Notes under the pieces: model-generated
Told to the model about the DNA's origin: nothing
Database searches by the model: none
The model's input: only the letters and a program-made list of their open reading frames with translations
Shown here: one piece after another, positions 15,832-31,424 of the stretch
Layout of the letters: every line of letters begins with the position of its first letter
How positions within the stretch are numbered: position 1 is the stretch's first letter
Translations under genes and position numbers: made by a program
Source: Patescibacteria group bacterium
GTDB taxonomy: Bacteria > Patescibacteriota > Patescibacteriia > UBA9934
Direction: 5' to 3'
DNA length: 64,000 nt
Assembly: GCA_041666205.1 (NCBI GenBank)
Contig: JBAYHI010000003.1
Span: 13,215-77,214, forward strand

Positions 15832-18800
15832 ATGCTCAATATGAATCGCCGATTTTTTGCGCCGAAATATTTTTTCGTCGCACTTTCACTAATTCTTGGA
15901 ATTGGTCTTTTTGCGTACGCGGATTCTGCATCCGCTGCGGCGATTTCGTGGGATAGCGGTGGGGCGAACAACGATTGGGAAACGGTCGAAAACTGGTCGG
16001 GCGATGCCGTGCCAACCGATGCAGATGACGTGACGATTGATTATGCGGAGACGATTGCTATCAATGCAACAACAACGGTGAATTCTTTAACAGTCGGTGG
16101 TACGAACGCAACGGTTCTCAATTTCGATTACGATGCCATTACCGGCGGGGCACTTATTATTGATGCGGGGAACTTGACGGTTGCCGCAAATGGAACGATT
16201 ACGCATACAGGTGGGTCAACAAGCTCGGTTCTTGCCACGGTTTTTATTGATGTACAAACAGGCGACGCAACAATTACAGGAACAGTGAATGTGGACGGAA
16301 AGGGGTATGCAAAAGGGTATGGTACCGGAAAGGGTACGGGCTTTGGTGGAGGTGGTTACGGGGGCGAAGGCAGTGCTGGGAACGGAGGTACGGGAGGCAC
16401 AACATACGGCTCTATTACTGCTCCGACAGATCTTGGTAGCGGAGGATCTGGAAGCTGTAATGGTGGGGCTGGAGCCGGGTCTGTGAAGTTATTAGTTGCT
16501 GGCGGATTAACGGTTGCGGGAAGTATCTCTGCAACAGGTGCAACGTCCAATGAGTGGTGCGCTTCGCCGGGGTCGGGCGGGTCAATTTATCTGGATGCGG
16601 GGACATTTGCTGGAGCCGGGACGGTTGATGTGAATGGTGGAGCATATAGCTATTTTAATGCAGGCCAAGGTGGTGGCGGGCGTCTTGCAATTTATTATGA
16701 TACGAATACCTATTCGGGAACTCCAACCGCATACGGTGGCTATGACGCCTCCAATGGGTACTATGCCGGTGCGGGCACAGTCTATATTAAAGACAATGCC
16801 GATACATACGGAAGTCTCACAGTCGACAACAATAGTCATGACATGACAACCGATGATCGATATTTGGGAAAAACAAATCTTTCTTCAACAGCGACCTATA
16901 AAAATCTTACAATTTCCAACGACGGTCATATTGATTTAATTTCCGGAGCAACCATTACCGTTGATTCAACGTTTACGTGGACAGGTGGAAATGTCACAGA
17001 TAGCGGTGGGGTGCTTGCAACCATAACATCAGGGGATGTTGTTGTACCGGCGGGGTCTTACTTTTATGCAAATACGGCGCGCACTGGAGCAGGGGCGCTC
17101 ACAAGTCTTACGATAAATGGTGTTCTTACACATTCAACAAATAGTACCCTTACATCTTACGTATTGGATGTGGAAACAACAGGCGCAACAGATATTGCTA
17201 CCGGGGGATCGGTCAATGTTGCAGCGCGTGGTCTTCAAAGAGGGTATGGTACTGGCGCGGCTTCGGGTGATCGCAGTGGAGCTGGATATGGAGGAGAAGG
17301 GGGCACAGGATATACATTGGCAGGTGGTGGCACCACATATGGGTCTATTACGGCCCCAACGAGTTTAGGCAGCGGAGGCTTTTCTGGGTGTGCGTCTGGA
17401 AATGGGGGCGGGGCAATTAAGCTTACGGTTGGCGGGACGCTTACAGTGACTGGGAGCATTACCGCCAGCGGTGGAGCGAGTGGGGAATGGTGTGGTGGAG
17501 GAGGATCGGGTGGCTCTATTTATCTAGACACAGGTACAATCACAGGGGCGGGGGCCATTACATCTGCGGGTGGCGCGGCAACAACAGCGGATGCGGGAAA
17601 TGGCGGAGGTGGTCGCATCGCAATCTATTACGATGCGAGTACCTATTCTGGGACTCCAACCGCGTATGGAGGATACTTTTCGACGAATTATTTTGGCGGA
17701 GCTGGCACGATTTATATAAAAGACAATGCCGACACGTATGGAAGTCTTACGGTAGATAATAATAGTCGTGATATAACAACGGATGATCGGTATTATGGGA
17801 AAACAAATCTTTCTTCAACGGCAACCTATAAAAATATTACGATTTCCAATGACGGCCATATTGATTTAATTTCCGGAGCAACCATCACGGTTGATTCAAC
17901 GCTCACGTGGACGGGCGGGAATATTACAGATAGCGGAGGGGTATTGAGCTCGGTAAATTCCGGGGACGTTGTTATCCCTGCGAACGCTCGTTTCCTAGCG
18001 AATACAACGCGGAGTGTAACCTCGCTTACCGTGAATGGCACGATGACACACTCAAAAAATACGACAGTGGAGACACATAAAATAAACTATACAACGAGCG
18101 CAGATGTCACAATCGGTGCCTCTGGGACAATAAATGTAACTCAGCAAGGTTTTATTGGGGGCTATGGGGACGGTCATGGGCACGATGCAGGGGCGTATGG
18201 TTCTGGTGGAGGTTATGGAGGCGTTGGAGGGGATACGGCAGATGGTGGAGATACCGGAGGGATTACGTATGGCTCGGAAACAGCACCGTCCAATCTCGGT
18301 TCGGGCGGGATGGGTGAGGGCGCGTCAAACCTCGGATCATCGGGCGGTGGCGCAGTCAAGCTTTCGGTGGGTGGAAATTTGAGTATTGGTGGAACAATTG
18401 TTGCAAATGGTGGATCAGATTATAGTGGGTGGTTCTTGAATTATGGCGGTGGCTCGGGCGGTTCCATTTGGCTTGCTGTTTCGGGCGCGATATCTGGAGG
18501 AGGGAATGTTTCTGCACAGGGATCAAGCGCACAAAGTGCCGGCGCTGGTGCCGGGGGTGGTGGACGTATCGCGATGACCGCCGCATCAAGTACGTGGTCG
18601 GGTTCGGCGTCTGTTATTGCTGGCACAACCGGCTATGCCGGCGGTGTTGGTACAGTGTATGATAATTACGCTCCAACAGCTGGCAATCCTTCCAATACGT
18701 TTGCAACAGATGGGACGGGCGAGATGCTTGTTTCCCTTGTTGTTGACGATCCCGATGATGAAACACTTTCATTGAAGGTGGAATATTCTATGGACGGAGG

Positions 18801-21800
18801 CGGCACGTGGGAAGACCCAACACTTTCAGAAACGCTAGGGGATACAACCGCAAGTTTTGGGACGCCGGCCACGGAAAACGATAATGCGTATCAAATTTCC
18901 AGTGTTATCACGTCATCGGGTGCAAATACAATTGCGTTCGTGTGGAATTCAAAAACCGATGAGCCAACCGGCGATGTTACCAATGCGAAAATTCGCGTCA
19001 CGGTCAACGACGGCGGAATGGATGGGACGCCAGCAACGAGTACAAATACCACGCTCGATAATGCCGCACCAACCGGTCTTGCCGACTTGGCTGTCACTGC
19101 CTATCCTTCAACCTCACTTTCTCTTTCTTGGACTGCGGCAACATCAGAATCTCACTTTGATCATTACGAACTGTGGTATGGTTCGAATTCATCCGACGTC
19201 AACAATCGTACCGGTTCCGCGACGGAATGGGACAATGCGGATGATGGTGCGCTTGCAACCATGAGTACCACTTCTACCACCATTACGGGTCTTTCACAAA
19301 ACGTCACGTACTACGTAAAGATTTGGGCGGTGGATGATTACACCAATGAAGCAACGCTTGTTGCGATCTCACAAAAAACAAATGGGCTTCCAACCGCCGC
19401 GACCGTCACACCGACGTTTGCCACAGATGGAACTGGAAGAACGACTGTGACGGTCATTATTGACGACGCAGACGATCAAACGTCTTCATTCAAAGTTGAG
19501 TATTCCACAAATGGCGGAGGTGCTTGGGCAGATCCAACACTTTCCACAACCGCGGAGGATTTGTCTGGAACGTTTGGTACTCCAGCGCTCAATAATGCGT
19601 CTACCTACCAAATTAGCAATGTCACAACCGCGTCGGGCGCGAATACGATTTCGTTCGTTTGGAACTCTGGAACGGATGTTCCCACTGCAGATGTTTCAAA
19701 CGCTCTTATTCGAATTACTCCATACGACGGTGCAGAGGCGGGGTCGGGTGTGAATTCCGCGAGTTTCTCCATGGATAATGCGGACCCTTCTGGCATGGCA
19801 GGTCTTGGTGTTGGTTCATATGCGTCCGATGAAGTTGTGATGACCTGGACTGCAGTTTCTTCTGAAACCAATTTTGATCACTACGAACTCTGGTATGGGA
19901 CTAATTCCTCGGATGTAGATAACCGCACAGGGACGGCAACAGAATGGGATAATTCCGACGATGCCACGCTCGCTACCATGACAACGGCCACGACAACAAT
20001 TCCAAGTCTTGTGGCAAATACTACGTATTACATCAAGGTTTGGGCTGTTGACGATTACGGCAATGAAGCAACGCTTGCCTCAAGTACACAAAAAACAAAC
20101 GCTATTGTGACAGCCACTACACCGACCGCGACGGTTGCAACAGACGGCACGGGTGAGGTGACGGTTGTCACGACCATTGATGACGCCGACGACGAAGACT
20201 CCCGCTTCTTGGTGGAATATTCCATCGATGGCGGTGGCACCTATGCCAAAGCGACGCTTTCGGAAACGGATGTAGACACCACGGCCACCTATGGGGATCC
20301 GGATGTTGCCAATGTAAATTCCTACCAAGTTGGAAATGCCTCCGGCTACGTTACAACTGCCTCTGGGGCAAATGCGGTAACCTTCATTTGGAATTCGCAT
20401 ACCGACGTGCCAACGGCCGATGTTACAAATGCAAAAATTCGTGTCACACCAAATGATCAAATTGAAGACGGCACCGCAATGCCATCTGCTAATTTCACGC
20501 TAGATAATGCACATCCCCAAGCACTTGCAGATTTTGTGGTGAGCGCAAAGAGTGCAACGTCTGTTACACTTACCTGGACAGCAGCAACAGATACACACTT
20601 TTCACACTATGAAATTTGGTATGGCGAAGATTCCGGAGATGTTGATGGACGGACCGGTACTGCAACGGAATGGGATAATTCCGACGATGCAGCACTCGCA
20701 ACTGCAACAACCGCAACAACACGTATCCTTCCTCTGGAGTCAGCAACAACCTATTTCTTCAAGATTTTTGCTGTCGACGATTATACAAACGAAACAACGC
20801 AGGCAGCGACTTCTGTAAAAACCTCTTCAAGAGGGAGCACTGCGTCGCGACCGACGCCAGCACCGGATCTTACCAACCTCACCGTCTCCCAAGATGATGG
20901 CACAACCACCGCGTCGCTCATGGAAGAAAAATGGACATCTGTGAATTGGCTCTCGCTTGGCGCGGTGCCAAATGTGAATGTGTATTACTCGGTTGACGAA
21001 GGAGTAAATTGGCTCAAGTTTGTTGGCCCGATTGCCAATCGCGACAATATTGGATTTGTGATGCCAGCAGGACTGGGCACCACCTTTATGCTTCGCGTCA
21101 TTGGCACCGACCTTGCCGTCAATCTCGATACTGAGACAACAGGCATCCTCACCCTCATTCCTCGTCCAATGACAGTTGAACCCGAGGCTCCGTCGGTTGT
21201 TTACAAGCCGGTTGAACCTATCTATCCCACTGATCCTTGGCTTGGCGTACCAGACCTTAACCCGGAGTGGCCACAAGAAACCGCACCGTTTATCCCTCCG
21301 GTAAAAGAAACGCCAACCGTCATTCCAGGTCAGTCTCCAATTATTACCTACACCGAACCAGAAGCCATTTCTCCGGTAACGGGACTCGAAGAACCGGTGT
21401 CAGACGTGCAGCCTGGCGACTATATTAAGAGCCCAAGTTTCCCAACCGTTTACTATGTGACGGAAGATTTGGCACGCAAACCATTTGCTGATGCACAAAC
21501 CTATTTCACCTACGAGGCAAGTTTTGATCGTATCAAAGTTGTGACAGACGCAACGCTTACGCTCCTCAATCTTTCCGGCCCCATGCTTCCAAAGCCATCC
21601 ACCGTGCTTGTAAAAATTCAAAGTGATCCAAAGGTTTACGTAGTGTCAGAAAATCCAGAGAATCCTTATCGCCCAATTCTCCGTTGGCTCTCAAGTGAAG
21701 AGCTTGCTACCACGCTGTATGGCGCCCATTGGTCAGATTATGTGATTGACGTGCCGGTGACGCTCTTTGCACGGTTTGAGATCGGGAATGCCATTGGGCT

Positions 21801-21864
21801 CCTTGATTTCCAAAGTGCGTTTGAAAAATCAGCCATGAAATTGCGGAGCGCAATTGTTCGATAA
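15832..21864 (+). CDS. Giant secreted/surface repeat protein (2010 aa): signal peptide, three Gly-rich beta-helix-like repeats, three Fn3/Ig-like repeats, C-terminal domain
   Basis: N-terminal signal 'FFVALSLILGIGLFAYADSASA'. Tandem DNA repeats with about 940-bp period (16.27-18.65 kb) and about 720-bp period (18.66-20.82 kb), with high nucleotide identity between units. Confidence 0.85.
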   Translation: MLNMNRRFFAPKYFFVALSLILGIGLFAYADSASAAAISWDSGGANNDWETVENWSGDAVPTDADDVTIDYAETIAINATTTVNSLTVGGTNATVLNFDYDAITGGALIIDAGNLTVAANGTITHTGGSTSSVLATVFIDVQTGDATITGTVNVDGKGYAKGYGTGKGTGFGGGGYGGEGSAGNGGTGGTTYGSITAPTDLGSGGSGSCNGGAGAGSVKLLVAGGLTVAGSISATGATSNEWCASPGSGGSIYLDAGTFAGAGTVDVNGGAYSYFNAGQGGGGRLAIYYDTNTYSGTPTAYGGYDASNGYYAGAGTVYIKDNADTYGSLTVDNNSHDMTTDDRYLGKTNLSSTATYKNLTISNDGHIDLISGATITVDSTFTWTGGNVTDSGGVLATITSGDVVVPAGSYFYANTARTGAGALTSLTINGVLTHSTNSTLTSYVLDVETTGATDIATGGSVNVAARGLQRGYGTGAASGDRSGAGYGGEGGTGYTLAGGGTTYGSITAPTSLGSGGFSGCASGNGGGAIKLTVGGTLTVTGSITASGGASGEWCGGGGSGGSIYLDTGTITGAGAITSAGGAATTADAGNGGGGRIAIYYDASTYSGTPTAYGGYFSTNYFGGAGTIYIKDNADTYGSLTVDNNSRDITTDDRYYGKTNLSSTATYKNITISNDGHIDLISGATITVDSTLTWTGGNITDSGGVLSSVNSGDVVIPANARFLANTTRSVTSLTVNGTMTHSKNTTVETHKINYTTSADVTIGASGTINVTQQGFIGGYGDGHGHDAGAYGSGGGYGGVGGDTADGGDTGGITYGSETAPSNLGSGGMGEGASNLGSSGGGAVKLSVGGNLSIGGTIVANGGSDYSGWFLNYGGGSGGSIWLAVSGAISGGGNVSAQGSSAQSAGAGAGGGGRIAMTAASSTWSGSASVIAGTTGYAGGVGTVYDNYAPTAGNPSNTFATDGTGEMLVSLVVDDPDDETLSLKVEYSMDGGGTWEDPTLSETLGDTTASFGTPATENDNAYQISSVITSSGANTIAFVWNSKTDEPTGDVTNAKIRVTVNDGGMDGTPATSTNTTLDNAAPTGLADLAVTAYPSTSLSLSWTAATSESHFDHYELWYGSNSSDVNNRTGSATEWDNADDGALATMSTTSTTITGLSQNVTYYVKIWAVDDYTNEATLVAISQKTNGLPTAATVTPTFATDGTGRTTVTVIIDDADDQTSSFKVEYSTNGGGAWADPTLSTTAEDLSGTFGTPALNNASTYQISNVTTASGANTISFVWNSGTDVPTADVSNALIRITPYDGAEAGSGVNSASFSMDNADPSGMAGLGVGSYASDEVVMTWTAVSSETNFDHYELWYGTNSSDVDNRTGTATEWDNSDDATLATMTTATTTIPSLVANTTYYIKVWAVDDYGNEATLASSTQKTNAIVTATTPTATVATDGTGEVTVVTTIDDADDEDSRFLVEYSIDGGGTYAKATLSETDVDTTATYGDPDVANVNSYQVGNASGYVTTASGANAVTFIWNSHTDVPTADVTNAKIRVTPNDQIEDGTAMPSANFTLDNAHPQALADFVVSAKSATSVTLTWTAATDTHFSHYEIWYGEDSGDVDGRTGTATEWDNSDDAALATATTATTRILPLESATTYFFKIFAVDDYTNETTQAATSVKTSSRGSTASRPTPAPDLTNLTVSQDDGTTTASLMEEKWTSVNWLSLGAVPNVNVYYSVDEGVNWLKFVGPIANRDNIGFVMPAGLGTTFMLRVIGTDLAVNLDTETTGILTLIPRPMTVEPEAPSVVYKPVEPIYPTDPWLGVPDLNPEWPQETAPFIPPVKETPTVIPGQSPIITYTEPEAISPVTGLEEPVSDVQPGDYIKSPSFPTVYYVTEDLARKPFADAQTYFTYEASFDRIKVVTDATLTLLNLSGPMLPKPSTVLVKIQSDPKVYVVSENPENPYRPILRWLSSEELATTLYGAHWSDYVIDVPVTLFARFEIGNAIGLLDFQSAFEKSAMKLRSAIVR

Positions 21865-26129: not shown

Positions 26130-26519
26130 CTAGGCAGCGATGGGGCAGAGAACAAGCGCGCCCGCGCACCAGGAATCGACCTCGGAAAACCAGGCTCTTC
26201 TCCAGGCTTTTTCCGGGTCTTTCTCTTGTTCATCGTGAACGAAACAGAGGAAATCGTCTTGACCATTCCTCATATTAGTCACGAGAATGTGAACGCCACG
26301 AAAAGGCGGTTCTGCTTTCGGCTTGCCCTTTGTTGGCTTTGCCTTGAGACCTCTTTCGAGAGCGTCGATGTCTCCTCTTGAGGCCACGGGGTCACGAATT
26401 CGTTTGAAGATCTCGGGTGCGGGGATCGTCTTTTCCTCAGGCTTGAGGAAACCGACCGCCACGAACTCGCGACCATCGTCGAGCATAAACGAAATACGGG
26501 TCTCGGAATGGGGGGTCAT
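26130..26519 (-). CDS. Hypothetical protein (GC about 58%), SD-led, immediately downstream of the RAYT transposase
   Basis: ATG at 26519 preceded by AGGAG with 5-nt spacing. The overlapping + strand ORF looks like antisense. Confidence 0.5.
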   Translation of the reverse strand: MTPHSETRISFMLDDGREFVAVGFLKPEEKTIPAPEIFKRIRDPVASRGDIDALERGLKAKPTKGKPKAEPPFRGVHILVTNMRNGQDDFLCFVHDEQEKDPEKAWRRAWFSEVDSWCAGALVLCPIAA

Positions 26520-26577
26520 GTGAACTCCTATCTGTGCAGAAGGGTTTTTCTAACATATCAGTCCGGCAAAGATAAGG

Positions 26578-27099
26578 TCAAGGTTTGCGGTGATTATGTG
26601 GGTTTTGCTGGATGTATTCGCGGACCCGGTCGAGATCACGCGGGGAACGAATGACGTGTTCGTAATAACCCCGTTGCCAAAAGGATTTTTTGAATTTCGG
26701 CCAATACCCGGCATACACGCCTCGAATATATTCATTTGTGGTTTTTGTTTTGAAAAAATTAATCATATCCGCCAATGATTTCGATTCTGTAGGGGCGGCC
26801 CAATGTGGCCGCCCGTTTGCAATTTGAATGATGCCATGGAAATGATCGGGCATAATGATAAATTCATCCAATCGCGTATTTGCAAAATGATCCGGGATTT
26901 GATTCCAAATGTTTTGAATCATATCCCTGGCCTGGGATAAACGCATTTCTTGCGGGCGGCCACATTGGGCCGCCCCTACGGTAAATAATTTCTGGCGACG
27001 ATACAAACAAATCGTCACAAAATAATATCCCTCCTGCGCATAATCATATTGCGGCAAACGGATCGATCTCCGAACAGGCAAATGCGAATTTCCTAACAT
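26578..27099 (-). mobile_element. IS200/IS605-family Y1 tyrosine transposase (REP-associated tyrosine transposase, RAYT-like)
   Basis: HuH motif 'MPDHFHGIIQI' and catalytic-Tyr region 'FWQRGYYEHVIRSPRDLDRVREYIQQNP'. N-terminal 'RRSIRLPQYDYAQEGYYFVTIC' is typical of this family. Carries two copies of a GTAG hairpin in inverted orientation inside the CDS. Confidence 0.85.
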
Positions 27100-27223
27100 A
27101 AATCCCCAAAATTATTTGGGGAGGTTTCATTTATTCATATTCGATTTTTTGGTTCCTGTCAATCCATTTATCCCCCAATGATCAAAATATGGCTTCAGGC
27201 CTTGATTTTCTTTCTAGAAAATG

Positions 27224-27232
27224 GTATAACGT
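27224..27232 (+). promoter_or_regulatory. Extended -10 promoter (TGgTATAAC) for tRNA-Lys
   Basis: Lies 25 nt upstream of the tRNA 5' end. Same TGnTATAAC form precedes tRNA-Gly (34589..34597). Confidence 0.45.
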
Positions 27233-27257
27233 CCCATGTTTCCAAGCCAAATATCAC

Positions 27258-27333
27258 GCGCTGGTAGCTCAGTCGGTAGAGCGAGGGCCTTTTAAGCCCG
27301 CGGTCGTGGGTTCGAATCCCACCCGGCGCACCA
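27258..27333 (+). tRNA. tRNA-Lys (anticodon TTT)
   Basis: Cloverleaf folds: acceptor gcgctgg/ccggcgc, anticodon loop cTTTTaa, T-arm gtgggTTCGAATcccac, 3' CCA encoded. Confidence 0.9.
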
Positions 27334-27424
27334 AAAATACCTGGATTTATTCCGGGTATTTTTGTATCTAAAAAAGAAGAACCCCACGCCGTGAGGTTCT
27401 CCTCTCGGGGTGGGGTAGGGATGT

Positions 27425-27727
27425 TCAGTAGGGCCACTCGTTCGGGAAGCCCAGCTCATCGAAGAGGCCTTGGATCACGTATCGAAGCCCGTCATCCATA
27501 TTGTTGAACGGGCCGAAGGATCCGAACATGGCTCGCGCATCACGATAGCTGTGAAACGCCAGAGTTCCGAAGGGCAACTCCAATATGATGGGGCGAGCCA
27601 GTGGGCTACAAGGCTCTCCTTCAACCATGAGTTGCTCATTGACTATTACTCGCGCCATGCACTCAATCTTTTGCATGCCTGTTATTGTTGCGATCGAGAA
27701 AGAGAACCTTTTTTCGGCGTATGCCAT
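27425..27727 (-). CDS. Hypothetical small protein
   Basis: 100-aa ORF; GC-rich hairpin terminators lie just after its 3' end (27335..27420). No motif recognised. Confidence 0.4.
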   Translation of the reverse strand: MAYAEKRFSFSIATITGMQKIECMARVIVNEQLMVEGEPCSPLARPIILELPFGTLAFHSYRDARAMFGSFGPFNNMDDGLRYVIQGLFDELGFPNEWPY

Positions 27728-27854: not shown

Positions 27855-28967
27855 ATGCGAATAGCAATGATTGGTCAAAAAGGAATCGAGCTTGGAAGCC
27901 GTGGGGGCGGGGTTGAGGTACATGTTGCACAAATTTCCTCTCGCCTCGTGAAAAAAGGTCACGACGTGACGATTTTTTGTCGCGCAAAATATAGTCCGAA
28001 AAAGCCGGGGGAATATCAAGGTGTTCATCTTCGGTATTTACCAACGATTTATACCAAACGCCTTGAGGCGATTGTCCACACGTTTTTTTCAACGCTTGCG
28101 GTTGTTGCAGGCTCGTTTGATGTTGTGCATTATCACGGTGTTGGACCGTCTACACTCGCATTTATTCCACGCATCTTTCGACCGCGCATGACCGTGGTTG
28201 TGACCTTCCATGCACGCGATATGCTCAATCGAAAATGGGGCTGGGGCGCACGACGACTTCTGGCATTTGCCGAGCGCACAGCGATTTGGTTTTCGCATTA
28301 TTGCATTGCTGTCTCGCATGATTTGCAGGTCTATTGTCGCGACGTGCTGCACCGCGAAGTTGTCTACATTCCAAATGGCGCCACGATTCAGGAAGAAACG
28401 GGCACAAATGAACTTGAAAAATTCGATCTCAGAGCACGAGAATATATTCTGACGGTTGGGCGGTTGGTTCCGGCAAAGGGCCTTCATTATCTTGTGGAGG
28501 CATTTCGTGGAATCGAAACGCAGCAACAACTCGTGATTGTTGGCGCGCCGAGTTATTCCGACGCCTATTTGGAATCGCTGTACGCCTTGGCCGAAGGCGA
28601 TGAGCGTATTCATTTTTTGGGATTTCAGACTGGCGAAACACTCCGCCAATTATTTGGCCATGCCTATTTGTATGTCCAACCATCCGAAGTTGAAGGGCTC
28701 CCACTCGTCGTGCTTGAAGCGATGAGCTTTGGCATTCCTCCGCTGGTTTCTGACATCGCCCCAAATCTCGAGGCAATCCACAATGGCGGATTTACATTTG
28801 AAACACAAAACGCCAATGATTTGCGCAAGCACCTGGTGGAGTTATTGGACCATCCTGATTTGGTTGCAGCGAAAAGTGCGCAAGCAAAAGAAATTATTCA
28901 AACCAAGTTTAACTGGGATGTGATTGCTGATCATACCGAGGCGATTTATATTTCGGCGCGGCACTAA
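27855..28967 (+). CDS. Glycosyltransferase family 4
   Basis: 'MRIAMIGQKG...GGGVEVHV' N-terminus and C-terminal 'EGLPLVVLEAMSFGIPPLVSD' (E-x7-E). TATAAT at 27843..27848 lies 6 nt before the ATG (leaderless-type). Confidence 0.85.
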   Translation: MRIAMIGQKGIELGSRGGGVEVHVAQISSRLVKKGHDVTIFCRAKYSPKKPGEYQGVHLRYLPTIYTKRLEAIVHTFFSTLAVVAGSFDVVHYHGVGPSTLAFIPRIFRPRMTVVVTFHARDMLNRKWGWGARRLLAFAERTAIWFSHYCIAVSHDLQVYCRDVLHREVVYIPNGATIQEETGTNELEKFDLRAREYILTVGRLVPAKGLHYLVEAFRGIETQQQLVIVGAPSYSDAYLESLYALAEGDERIHFLGFQTGETLRQLFGHAYLYVQPSEVEGLPLVVLEAMSFGIPPLVSDIAPNLEAIHNGGFTFETQNANDLRKHLVELLDHPDLVAAKSAQAKEIIQTKFNWDVIADHTEAIYISARH

Positions 28968-28968
28968 T

Positions 28969-29940
28969 ATGCAAGAGGGTGCTTCACTACTCGCAGTCCA
29001 CCATCAGAGCGTGCAAGACGCCTTGGCACTTTTTGGTGTCTCGCGTGCGGGGCTCTGCGAAGAAGATGTGCTTGTGCGCGGCGCTTCATTGGCACGACCA
29101 ACGTCATGCACGGTTGCCATTGTGCGACGGCAACAACATTTGCGACAGGTGGATGCTGAGGGGTTGGTTGAAGGAGATATTGTGCTCTTGCGCCCGGGTT
29201 TTTCTGTTTTTGCCGATGGGAGGCTCCTCCTTGCATCAGATCTCCACATGAATGAGCTCCAGATATTTGGAAATACTGATGTGCATAAGCAATTGGCTGC
29301 GCTTTTGCCAGAAACACTTCCCATCGATGCAACCAATATGGTATTTGCTGGTTCACGCGTCCTCTCCGGAACAGGCGAATACGTTGTAACCGCACCATCG
29401 GATAAATCGCTTTGCAGAAAATTCAATCTTTGTGATGTAGCATGCGAACCCGTCACAGACGTCTGCTTGGAGTTCGTGGAGTCCTCGGTGTCTGATCGCG
29501 AGCTTTTGTGTTTGCATGCAACCTTGGGCGATGAACTCATCTTAAATCCGCATACTGGCGTGTTCGAATCCATTGGCGGGCGTTATGAAAAAGCGATCGC
29601 CTTGTTTTTGCAACAGCATCCCATGGAAATCGGGTTGCGCGTTTTTCATCATCCCATGGATGCGGAACGTGGTGTTGCTATCGCAGTCGTAGAAATGGTT
29701 GGTGGGCGTACGGTTTTGCTTGCGGGGGAAGCCGATGTCCTGTTGCCGCTGCTTGATATCACCGATAAAGAACGCTCTCAAATCACAAGAAAACTTCAGG
29801 ATGCGCGAAAAAAACACATGCTCACCCTTCTTCTTGCAGAAACGCCAGGGAGTGAGCAGGCACAAACAGTTGATGCACTTGGCGATCTCTCGTATGTCGG
29901 GCTGGTGTATTTTTCGGCGATAAAAAACAAGAACTCCTAA
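28969..29940 (+). CDS. Soluble P-type-ATPase-like protein (Cation_ATPase_N + actuator + partial nucleotide-binding domain) lacking TM helices and the DKTGT phosphorylation motif
   Basis: 'SVQDALALFGVSRAGLCEEDV' N-domain, then 'VEGDIVLLRPGFSVFADGRLLLASDLHMNELQIFGNTD' (A-domain; TGES degenerate), then 'GRTVLLAGEADVLL...HMLTLLLAE' (N-domain-like). No hydrophobic segments. Confidence 0.6.
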   Translation: MQEGASLLAVHHQSVQDALALFGVSRAGLCEEDVLVRGASLARPTSCTVAIVRRQQHLRQVDAEGLVEGDIVLLRPGFSVFADGRLLLASDLHMNELQIFGNTDVHKQLAALLPETLPIDATNMVFAGSRVLSGTGEYVVTAPSDKSLCRKFNLCDVACEPVTDVCLEFVESSVSDRELLCLHATLGDELILNPHTGVFESIGGRYEKAIALFLQQHPMEIGLRVFHHPMDAERGVAIAVVEMVGGRTVLLAGEADVLLPLLDITDKERSQITRKLQDARKKHMLTLLLAETPGSEQAQTVDALGDLSYVGLVYFSAIKNKNS

Positions 29941-29966
29941 ACCTTGGTATACTAGTAAAAAATCGT

Positions 29967-31424
29967 ATGGATTTTACACGCATTGAAAATTTTCAAGACG
30001 CTGTGGTGACTGTGATGGGTCTTGGGCGTTATAAACAAGGAAGTGGGCTGGGCGCTGCCAAGTGGCTTATTCGCCATGGCGCGCAAACCATTATTACGGA
30101 TTTGAAAGATCAAACCGAGCTTGAGGAATCCATGTCGCTCGTTACCGAGTGGTATGAAAAATATCGCACGCTGTACCCGAATCGCACGATTTACCAGCCG
30201 ATTTTTGTGCTGGGCGAACACCGCAAAGAAGATTTCACCGATGTAGACTGTGTGGTGCAAAATCCTGGGGTGCCGAGTGAATCAGAATTTATTCTTGCGG
30301 CAAAAGAAAAAGGCGTCTCCATCGAATCCGACGTCAGTTTATTTTTCCGTTATTGCCCGTATCCCATTATTGCGGTCACGGGAACAAAAGGGAAAACCAC
30401 CACCACCAAACTTATTGGCACCATGCTCGAGACACGCGACCCGCAAGCTGTGACGGCTGGGAATATCAAAGTGAGTCCGCTAGAAACGCTCGATGAACTG
30501 CTCACGCGTGGCGAGCCAACGCTTGTTGTATTGGAACTCTCGTCGTGGCTTTTGGAAAGTTTGCCACCGGCGTTTGCTGATCTCAAAAAAGGACCCGATA
30601 TCTCGATTCTTACCAATGTCTACCCGGATCACTTGAATCGCTATCCAAGTTATGGCGATTATATCCATTCAAAAGAAATTATTTTCCTCGATCAAACTGC
30701 CGATCAATATACGATTCTCAATTGGGATCACGAAACCGTGCGTTCCATGGAGCCGGAAGTAAAAGGGCATTTGTTTTGGTGCTCAAAAACGTATCAGAAA
30801 CACGATGGGTGTTTTGTAAAAGATGGGCAGGTGGTTATTCGCATGGGGGAGATTGAGGAAGTGGTGATTCCGGTTGCCGATATTGCGCTCAAAGGGGATC
30901 ACAATTTGGAAAATATCTTATCCTCGGTTTGTGCGGCGCGTTTGCGTGGTATTCCAGTTGAGTTGGTGCGTGAGGTTTTGAAGACCTTCCAAGGTGTTTC
31001 GGATCGCCAGGAATTGGTGCGTGAAGTTGATGAGATTTCGTATGTGAACGATACAACGGCTACGGCGCCTGACGCAGTGATTGCGGCGCTCAAACGCTTT
31101 GGAAACGATGGCGACATTATTCTCATTGCCGGCGGAGTTGATAAGAAGATGGATTTCAAGGGCATGGTTGAGGAAACCGTGAAAACGTGCAAACACGTGA
31201 TTTTATTTGATGGCGATGCGTCCGACATTATTGAAACAGGCATTGCGGGTCGGATTCCTGTGGAAACGCATGTGAAATCTATGAAAGAAGCCGTGCAAAA
31301 AGCAAAAGCCCTAGCAAAAACAGGCGATATTGTTTTGCTCTCGCCAGGTGCGGCAAGCTTCAATTTGTTTAAAAACGAATTTGATCGCGGAGAACAATTC
31401 CGCGAGGAAGTCCGTAACCTCTAA
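29967..31424 (+). CDS. murD: UDP-N-acetylmuramoylalanine--D-glutamate ligase
   Basis: N-terminal Rossmann 'VTVMGLGRYKQGSGLGAAKWL' and Mur ligase P-loop 'AVTGTKGKTTTTKLIG'. MurD-like domain order. Confidence 0.8.
   Translation: MDFTRIENFQDAVVTVMGLGRYKQGSGLGAAKWLIRHGAQTIITDLKDQTELEESMSLVTEWYEKYRTLYPNRTIYQPIFVLGEHRKEDFTDVDCVVQNPGVPSESEFILAAKEKGVSIESDVSLFFRYCPYPIIAVTGTKGKTTTTKLIGTMLETRDPQAVTAGNIKVSPLETLDELLTRGEPTLVVLELSSWLLESLPPAFADLKKGPDISILTNVYPDHLNRYPSYGDYIHSKEIIFLDQTADQYTILNWDHETVRSMEPEVKGHLFWCSKTYQKHDGCFVKDGQVVIRMGEIEEVVIPVADIALKGDHNLENILSSVCAARLRGIPVELVREVLKTFQGVSDRQELVREVDEISYVNDTTATAPDAVIAALKRFGNDGDIILIAGGVDKKMDFKGMVEETVKTCKHVILFDGDASDIIETGIAGRIPVETHVKSMKEAVQKAKALAKTGDIVLLSPGAASFNLFKNEFDRGEQFREEVRNL

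Follow-up and report, generated by a model that had tools for sequence, protein, structure and literature searches.

Genes at the locus

The window, by which we mean the whole 64,000-nt stretch analysed, is part of contig JBAYHI010000003.1 (GCA_041666205.1) from a Patescibacteria group bacterium. A GT4 glycosyltransferase gene (27855-28967, + strand) is followed there by a short ORF (28969-29940, +) and by murD (29967-31424, +). The short ORF, whose product is treated here as a soluble derivative of a P2-type ATPase, runs from an ATG at 28969 to a stop codon at 29938-29940, a length of 323 aa without the stop. An earlier note on this DNA had placed it correctly between GT4 and murD, while its figure of 324 aa has to be amended. 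The NCBI entry for the product is hypothetical protein WCT24_01705 (MFA6522291.1).

The TAA stop of the GT4 gene lies 1 nt before the ATG of the short ORF ('TAATATG'). A start at the in-frame TTG at 28924, further 5', is improbable in view of the position of the GT4 stop (28965-28967). On the other side, the gap between the stop of the short ORF and murD is 26 nt. The ortholog on contig L002 has the same GT4/short-ORF spacing ('TGATATG'), and its gene order matches that of the window: GT4, short ORF, murD, murE, a gene with a bPH domain, DivIC and rotamase.

A -10-like box, 'TATACT', is found at 29947-29952 (+), 5' of the murD ATG at 29967. A TATAAT or TATACT box occupies the equivalent spot before murD in almost all related loci (in L002 at approximately 2196-2201, and also in L004, L005, L008, L009, L011, L012 and L051); in L051, L070, L009 and L005, it falls at or within the 3' end of the ATPase gene that precedes murD. 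This sequence pattern suggests that murD is transcribed from a promoter of its own, with a very short leader.

It should also be noted that the window carries an extra segment of about 1.2 kb between murG and GT4 (window 26130-27440 versus L003 5434-5843). It consists of a hypothetical gene (26130-26519, -) and an IS200-like Y1 transposase gene (26578-27099, -; Y1_Tnp, 1.8e-6), while the sister genome (L003) has tRNA-Lys alone at this site. The strand of the tRNA-Lys gene differs between the two (window 27258-27333, +; L003 5613-5688, -). Further upstream, an ORF of 2010 aa (15832-21864, +) lies 5' of the mraY-ftsW-murG genes.

A second short form

In a collection of 5.8 billion clusters, the window ORF matches only itself (WCT24_01705). 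When 1.84 billion representatives were searched exhaustively with HMMER, one real short relative emerged, P0003 (E 1.5e-24), and every lower-ranked match was a full-length or fragmentary P-type ATPase. P0003 was originally called at 228 aa; with an in-frame ATG 261 nt upstream on contig L002, it becomes a protein of 315 aa (JBAZUI01; NCBI WC730_03185), which aligns with the window protein end to end at 39% identity (E 4e-61). At L002 1221-1505, the Logan gene caller had placed an antisense gene of 90 aa across the actual N-terminus of the short ORF. Word-indexed searches with the ORF and with the alignment of the pair gave the same short members only, and the exhaustive search together with two metagenome scans yielded no short form beyond the window protein and P0003/P0152. 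Hence, of the similar TM-less fragments that the earlier note had proposed to look for in related genomes, there is one ortholog, and the exhaustive search found no others. NCBI lists both short forms as intact hypothetical proteins with no pseudogene flag.

Its short length is the one feature that would favour reading the window ORF as an assembly or gene-calling artefact, or as a recently frameshifted pseudogene of a pump within the window. The sequence of the ORF is, however, identical in an independent Logan assembly, the same architecture is present in a second genome, and the non-coding sequence on either side of the ORF amounts to no more than 1 nt and 26 nt. Moreover, a search of the 64-kb window in any frame found neither a frameshifted remainder nor a second P-type ATPase. 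We regard this explanation as refuted by the second assembly, the second genome and the flanks.

Domain architecture of the short form

The sole Pfam match of the window protein is to E1-E2_ATPase (PF00122; 7.2e-14, 52.2 bits against a cutoff of 28.1 bits), with aa 50-147 covering profile positions 7-92 of 181. Cation_ATPase_N, PF13246 (N-domain) and PF00702 (HAD) have no match at E<=1. Among solved structures, the Listeria Ca2+-ATPase LMCA1 ranks first (E 4e-10 over aa 42-148); MgtA, Na,K-ATPases and H,K-ATPases come next. No TM segment was found in the window protein, in which the highest 19-residue Kyte-Doolittle hydropathy is 1.58, and the DKTG, GDGxND, PEGL and TGD motifs are all missing from it. 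The Pfam, hydropathy and motif scans thus bear out the earlier description of a TM-less P-type ATPase homolog without catalytic motifs.

Comparison by BLASTP of the window protein with a full-length relative gives three collinear blocks. To place these blocks, we used a profile built from 68 full-length ATPases, in which TGES is at node 169, PEGL at 285, DKTGT at 328, DPLR at 508 and GDGVND at 605.

The first block is the N-terminal segment of the ancestral pump, which packs on the A-domain (aa 1-44; 28969-29100, +). In the profile it is weak, with aa 8-37 on nodes 5-34 at 2 bits; aa 1-37 are 43% identical to residues 1-37 of the relative P0004 (pairwise E 5e-7), and, at 52% identity, this is the best-conserved block between the two short forms. 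A match to Cation_ATPase_N had been claimed for this region: N-terminal homology to close full-length relatives is indeed present, but the Pfam match itself is not. The segment ends at junction 1, the site of the deleted TM1-TM2 hairpin (about 70 profile nodes).

The second block is the beta-roll of the A-domain, or actuator domain (aa 45-147; 29101-29409, +). Residues 48-145 match nodes 117-215 at 100 bits, and the two short forms are 43% identical here. By alignment, the A-domain contains 'IFGNTD' (aa 99-104; 29263-29280, +), a degenerate form of the LTGES dephosphorylation loop: the TGES of the pumps aligns to 'GN-TD' in the window protein, with the catalytic Glu substituted, so that the claimed degeneration of TGES is upheld.

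A linker marks junction 2 (aa 148-177; 29410-29499, +), where the pumps have the exit helix of the A-domain, TM3, TM4 (PEGL) and the DKTGT segment. Identity between the two short forms drops to 12% in this linker (dN about 1.2), which, on its own, has no match to the profile of full-length pumps. Two candidate relics were considered in this region. The first, suggested by a MAFFT alignment, takes ATLGDELILNPHTG as what a KTG-to-KTG deletion would have left of the phosphorylation loop 'ETLGSVSVICxDKTG'; it is unsupported, since HMMER places aa 178-316 on the N-domain and the linker alone matches nothing. The second, 'NPHTG' as a relic of DKTG, is likewise unsupported, since the linker alone is without any profile match. 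Four Cys fall within 18 linker residues of the window protein (C149, C155, C159 and C166; 29413-29466); none of the four is kept in the L002 ortholog, and the cluster is probably not a metal site.

The third block is the nucleotide-binding or N-domain (aa 178-316; 29500-29916, +), which matches profile nodes 361-507 at 41 bits, is 41% identical between the short forms, and stops at the 'GL.DPLR' boundary with the P-domain. The N-domain match reported earlier is therefore real, and longer than had been claimed. Within it lies 'AGEAD' (aa 252-256; 29722-29736, +), a degenerate KGAPE ATP-site motif that reads 'FAEAD' in L002. A tail past junction 3 (aa 317-323 plus the stop; 29917-29940, +) completes the protein. 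Everything from DPLR onward is missing, namely the second half of the P-domain, GDGxND and TM5-10 (about 360 nodes).

In all, nodes 46-116, about 216-360 and 508-870 are without counterpart in the short form, which has 37% of the length of the parent pump. In each short form 'RG' is separated from 'VRR' by 13 residues, and the two C-termini fall within one residue of each other. Given that these junctions are common to both, the deletions predate the split of the two lineages.

Origin from a full-length pump

With murD as the syntenic anchor, 77 loci were fetched from reference genomes. Ten of these loci have a MurD of 55-83% identity, and in every one of them a P-type ATPase of about 825-880 aa is encoded directly 5' of murD (L004, L005, L006, L008-L012, L051 and L070), and in L004, L006, L010 and L051 GT4 directly precedes the pump gene. 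The slot before murD holds the 323/315-aa form solely in the window and in L002/L003. The syntenic pumps score best against models of PMR1/SERCA-type Ca2+-ATPases (NCBIfam TIGR01522/TIGR01116), at values under the equivalog cutoffs. In their source records, the full-length pumps bear the names 'HAD-IC family P-type ATPase' or 'Ca2+-transporting ATPase'; Candidatus Uhrbacteria is the source of many of them.

The short ORF is the in-situ orthologous remnant of a P2-type (Ca2+-ATPase-like) pump gene located before murD, and the comparison shows that the short-form clade has lost a pump gene that its relatives keep beside murD. A full-length ATPase around the ORF, which had been raised as a possible sign of a pseudogene remnant, is thus present in the same slot of ten relatives, but not as a frameshifted remainder in the window. 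Among the best 120 relatives of a full-length ortholog, none is an intact paralog on either of the two short-form contigs, a weak result that covers these contigs only. The suggestion of domain shuffling does not survive, as the blocks are strictly collinear with the ancestral pump and point to in-situ deletions. GT4 is 78% identical between the window and L002, against 55-59% between the window and the pump-bearing genomes; this supports the two short-form genomes being sister lineages.

In the common ancestor of the two lineages, the gene thus lost three regions by deletion, and a single reading frame persisted. Gone are the TM1-TM2 hairpin, the part that begins at the exit of the A-domain and takes in TM3-TM4 and the DKTGT site, and all that lies past the N-domain (the rest of the P-domain and TM5-10). 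The N-terminal segment, the roll of the A-domain and the N-domain are left, on short linkers; membrane anchor, phosphorylation site and ion-binding site are all lacking.

Two observations on the relatives are recorded here. In syntenic pumps such as those of L051 (3176-5824) and L012 (5311-7944), the Lys of KGAPE is already replaced ('IGAPD', 'VGAPD/E'), and these KGAPE-variant pumps of Patescibacteria otherwise retain all catalytic motifs. Separately, several TPA MAG records (L004, L005, L007, L008, L009, L012 and others) carry the title 'uncultured Gammaproteobacteria bacterium' or 'Candidatus Saccharibacteria'. Their gene content and similarity clearly mark them as Patescibacteria (MurD 72-78% identical to that of the window, Uhrbacteria-like ATPase), and the titles are probably placeholders or wrong taxonomy labels.

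Catalytic residues and predicted fold

Full-length pumps show conservation of 80% or more at 39 positions inside the retained blocks. Of these, 36-39 are kept by the syntenic pumps, 26 by the window protein and 22 by the L002 protein. The retained positions are mostly structural ('VxPGDxVxLxxG', 'ADxR', 'NMVFxG'). The TGES loop is substituted in the window protein and has suffered a 5-residue deletion in L002. In the ATP site, both forms have other residues for the GAP of KGAPE; the Arg of GLRVLA, which we take to be SERCA R560 on the residue mapping of the textbook ATP site, has given way to Leu or Thr; nothing corresponds to the Lys of PFDSxxK; and the PFDS Phe is Met in the window protein only. 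The Glu of the adenine-site motif GxxTE is retained ('GGRYE' in one form, 'GSGYE' in the other). With TGES and ATP-site residues lost and structural residues retained, the label of pseudo-enzyme given to the protein earlier is apt.

Judged from these residues, the short form is unable to pump ions or to be phosphorylated, because the phosphorylation site, the dephosphorylation loop and the ion site are gone and the ATP site is degraded. Very probably, it neither hydrolyses ATP nor binds it well. This bears on a proposal that we consider improbable, namely that the N-domain still binds ATP or ADP and that the protein acts as a soluble sensor or regulator, which is the regulatory option of the earlier note read to the letter. 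In its favour, the N-domain fold is kept with good model confidence and the GxxTE Glu is still there; yet GAP of KGAPE has become EA in both forms, the equivalent of R560 is Leu or Thr, the PFDSxxK Lys is lacking, and the Phe that stacks on the nucleotide is Met in the window protein.

When AF2 was run with an alignment, the mean pLDDT was 77, with values above 90 for the A-domain and of about 65-97 for the N-domain (aa 205-315, mostly above 78), and weak values for the N-terminus and the linker; from the single sequence, pLDDT was 32.6. The best Foldseek matches of the AF2 model are LMCA1, MgtA, Na,K-ATPase and SERCA. P-type ATPases therefore come out on top in a fold check of the kind that had been proposed, although the AF2 alignment itself consisted of P-type ATPases, with parts misplaced, which makes this support for the fold partly circular. 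The model fits two intact domains on a flexible tether.

Selection on the short form

Between the window and L002, protein identity is 39% for the short form, compared with 78% for GT4, 86% for MurD, 66% for MurE and 53% for the bPH protein. Both short forms have an open frame throughout, of 323 and 315 codons, which none of the indels shifts. At the first, second and third codon positions, identity is 0.54, 0.63 and 0.32, respectively. With dN at 0.63-0.69 and dS at about 2.3-2.5, omega for the short form is approximately 0.25 (NG86) or 0.30 (ML), values that are imprecise given that dS is saturated; LWL85 and YN00 give no dN/dS for the short form owing to this saturation. Saturation extends to all five genes compared (dS 1.3-2.9; identity at 4-fold sites 0.25-0.46), and omega of the neighbouring genes ranges from 0.02 to 0.35 by gene and method.

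In neutral simulations (32-50% nucleotide identity), 0 of 200 sequences remained free of stops, and the gap in identity between positions 2 and 3, observed at 0.31, reached a maximum of 0.11 in simulations at matched divergence. Codon pattern and simulations therefore point to purifying selection at the protein level over most of the time since the deletions. The frame is undisrupted and the substitution pattern is not neutral, and on these grounds the short form appears not to be a dead pseudogene. The view that this is not a simple pseudogene is accordingly supported by an ortholog with the same architecture, 39% identity, an intact frame and dN/dS of about 0.3.

The same data weigh on the idea that the ORF is a translated spacer, open only so that translation passes through the operon by coupling to GT4 and without polarity on murD-murE, its amino acids being irrelevant. 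The distance of 1 nt between the GT4 stop and the ORF start in both genomes speaks for it, and no terminator-like site was found between GT4 and murD. A spacer, though, predicts avoidance of stops with equal divergence at all codon positions, which is not the pattern observed, and the 39% amino acid identity is concentrated in the domain blocks. Furthermore, with a -10-like box of its own before murD in almost all relatives, read-through is probably not needed. We consider the spacer highly improbable.

Constraint on the short form is nevertheless weaker than on the pump from which it derives. Over the same A- and N-domain columns and at equal MurD divergence (86-88%), the full-length proteins of L011 and L012 are 73% identical, against 39-44% for the short forms; from Poisson distances, the rate of the short form is about 2.5-3 times that of the corresponding segments in full-length pumps. 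As far as the sequences go, this faster rate is what relaxed selection would produce, and a slowly dying gene would behave likewise. With dS saturated, a recent lapse of constraint in either lineage would also be compatible with the data.

An alternative that we consider unlikely, and yet take seriously, is that the short form is a non-functional relic in slow decay. The pump would have become dispensable, frame-keeping deletions would have removed its aggregation-prone membrane parts, and the leftover would be without a role, its constraint either directed only against a toxic or misfolded product or recently lapsed. The accelerated rate is what one would expect of such a relic, as are the loss of catalytic and ATP-site residues, the different decay of the TGES loop in the two forms, the confinement to two lineages and the lack of any function-specific motif. 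Against it, two frames of about 320 codons have stayed open and 39% identical while synonymous sites became saturated, omega is around 0.3, and constraint follows the domains. In addition, so small a genome would be expected to shed a useless 1-kb stretch over such time.

Interpretation

Our preferred reading, to which we assign a probability of roughly 0.6, is that the ORF encodes a soluble, catalytically inert protein of A- and N-domains, translated via coupling to GT4 and kept under relaxed selection. The product would be a soluble two-domain protein whose translation is tightly coupled to the GT4 stop, and any role would be one of binding or scaffolding, as a pseudoenzyme, rather than catalysis. 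Neither a known partner nor a newly conserved motif hints at a function.

A stronger version is offered tentatively, at somewhat less than even odds: a free-standing A+N module was carved from a P-type pump and has long been kept in a binding or regulatory capacity that involves no catalysis, its expression shared with the cell-envelope genes GT4, murD and murE in one clade of Patescibacteria. That only two lineages are known to have the short form counts against such a retained protein.

Either way, the short form is a clean, datable case of the gene for a large membrane pump shrinking in an ultra-small genome, with the two mobile cytoplasmic domains surviving as one soluble protein under protein-level constraint. 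Should it have a role, this would make it the first A+N module of a P-type ATPase to stand alone in nature, and it would serve as a model for the birth of a pseudoenzyme from a transporter; if the retained-module reading is true, that pseudoenzyme would have been caught as it arises. If it has none, it calibrates the persistence time of a 'harmless' relic. For annotators, the case means that a PF00122 match alone does not imply a pump.

Comparison with known systems

Bacterial P2-type Ca2+-ATPases (LMCA1 and the syntenic Uhrbacteria pumps) share with the short form the slot, the orientation, the tight GT4 junction, the N-terminal segment and the A- and N-domains. Unlike those pumps, the short form is without TM helices, PEGL, DKTGT, P-domain and GDGxND. 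We found nothing comparable in the literature in the way of a natural soluble A/N-domain protein.

Like the short form, the archaeal 'soluble P-type ATPase' (arCOG01579) is a TM-less relative of the cytoplasmic part of a pump. This family presumably corresponds to the MJ0968-type protein. The archaeal soluble P-type ATPase keeps a phosphatase-like, HAD-type P-domain with the phosphorylation motif. Set against that description, the short form shows the opposite retention, with A and N kept and the P-domain gone. The arCOG01579 'soluble P-type ATPase' is listed as a methanogen marker (PMC4153887).

A co-opted P-type ATPase module is known from Apicomplexa, in which a P4-ATPase-like domain is fused to guanylyl cyclase (PMC7858053). 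As would be the case for the short form, a piece of a P-type ATPase is kept there for a use outside classical pumping. The modules fused to guanylyl cyclase are membrane-embedded, near full-length and joined to an enzyme, whereas the short form is a free-standing soluble fragment.

Finally, the short form resembles the pseudogenes of reductive genomes in being truncated, fast-evolving and devoid of catalytic residues. Unlike such pseudogenes, it has an intact frame in two lineages with saturated dS, an omega of about 0.3, and deletions that respect domain boundaries.
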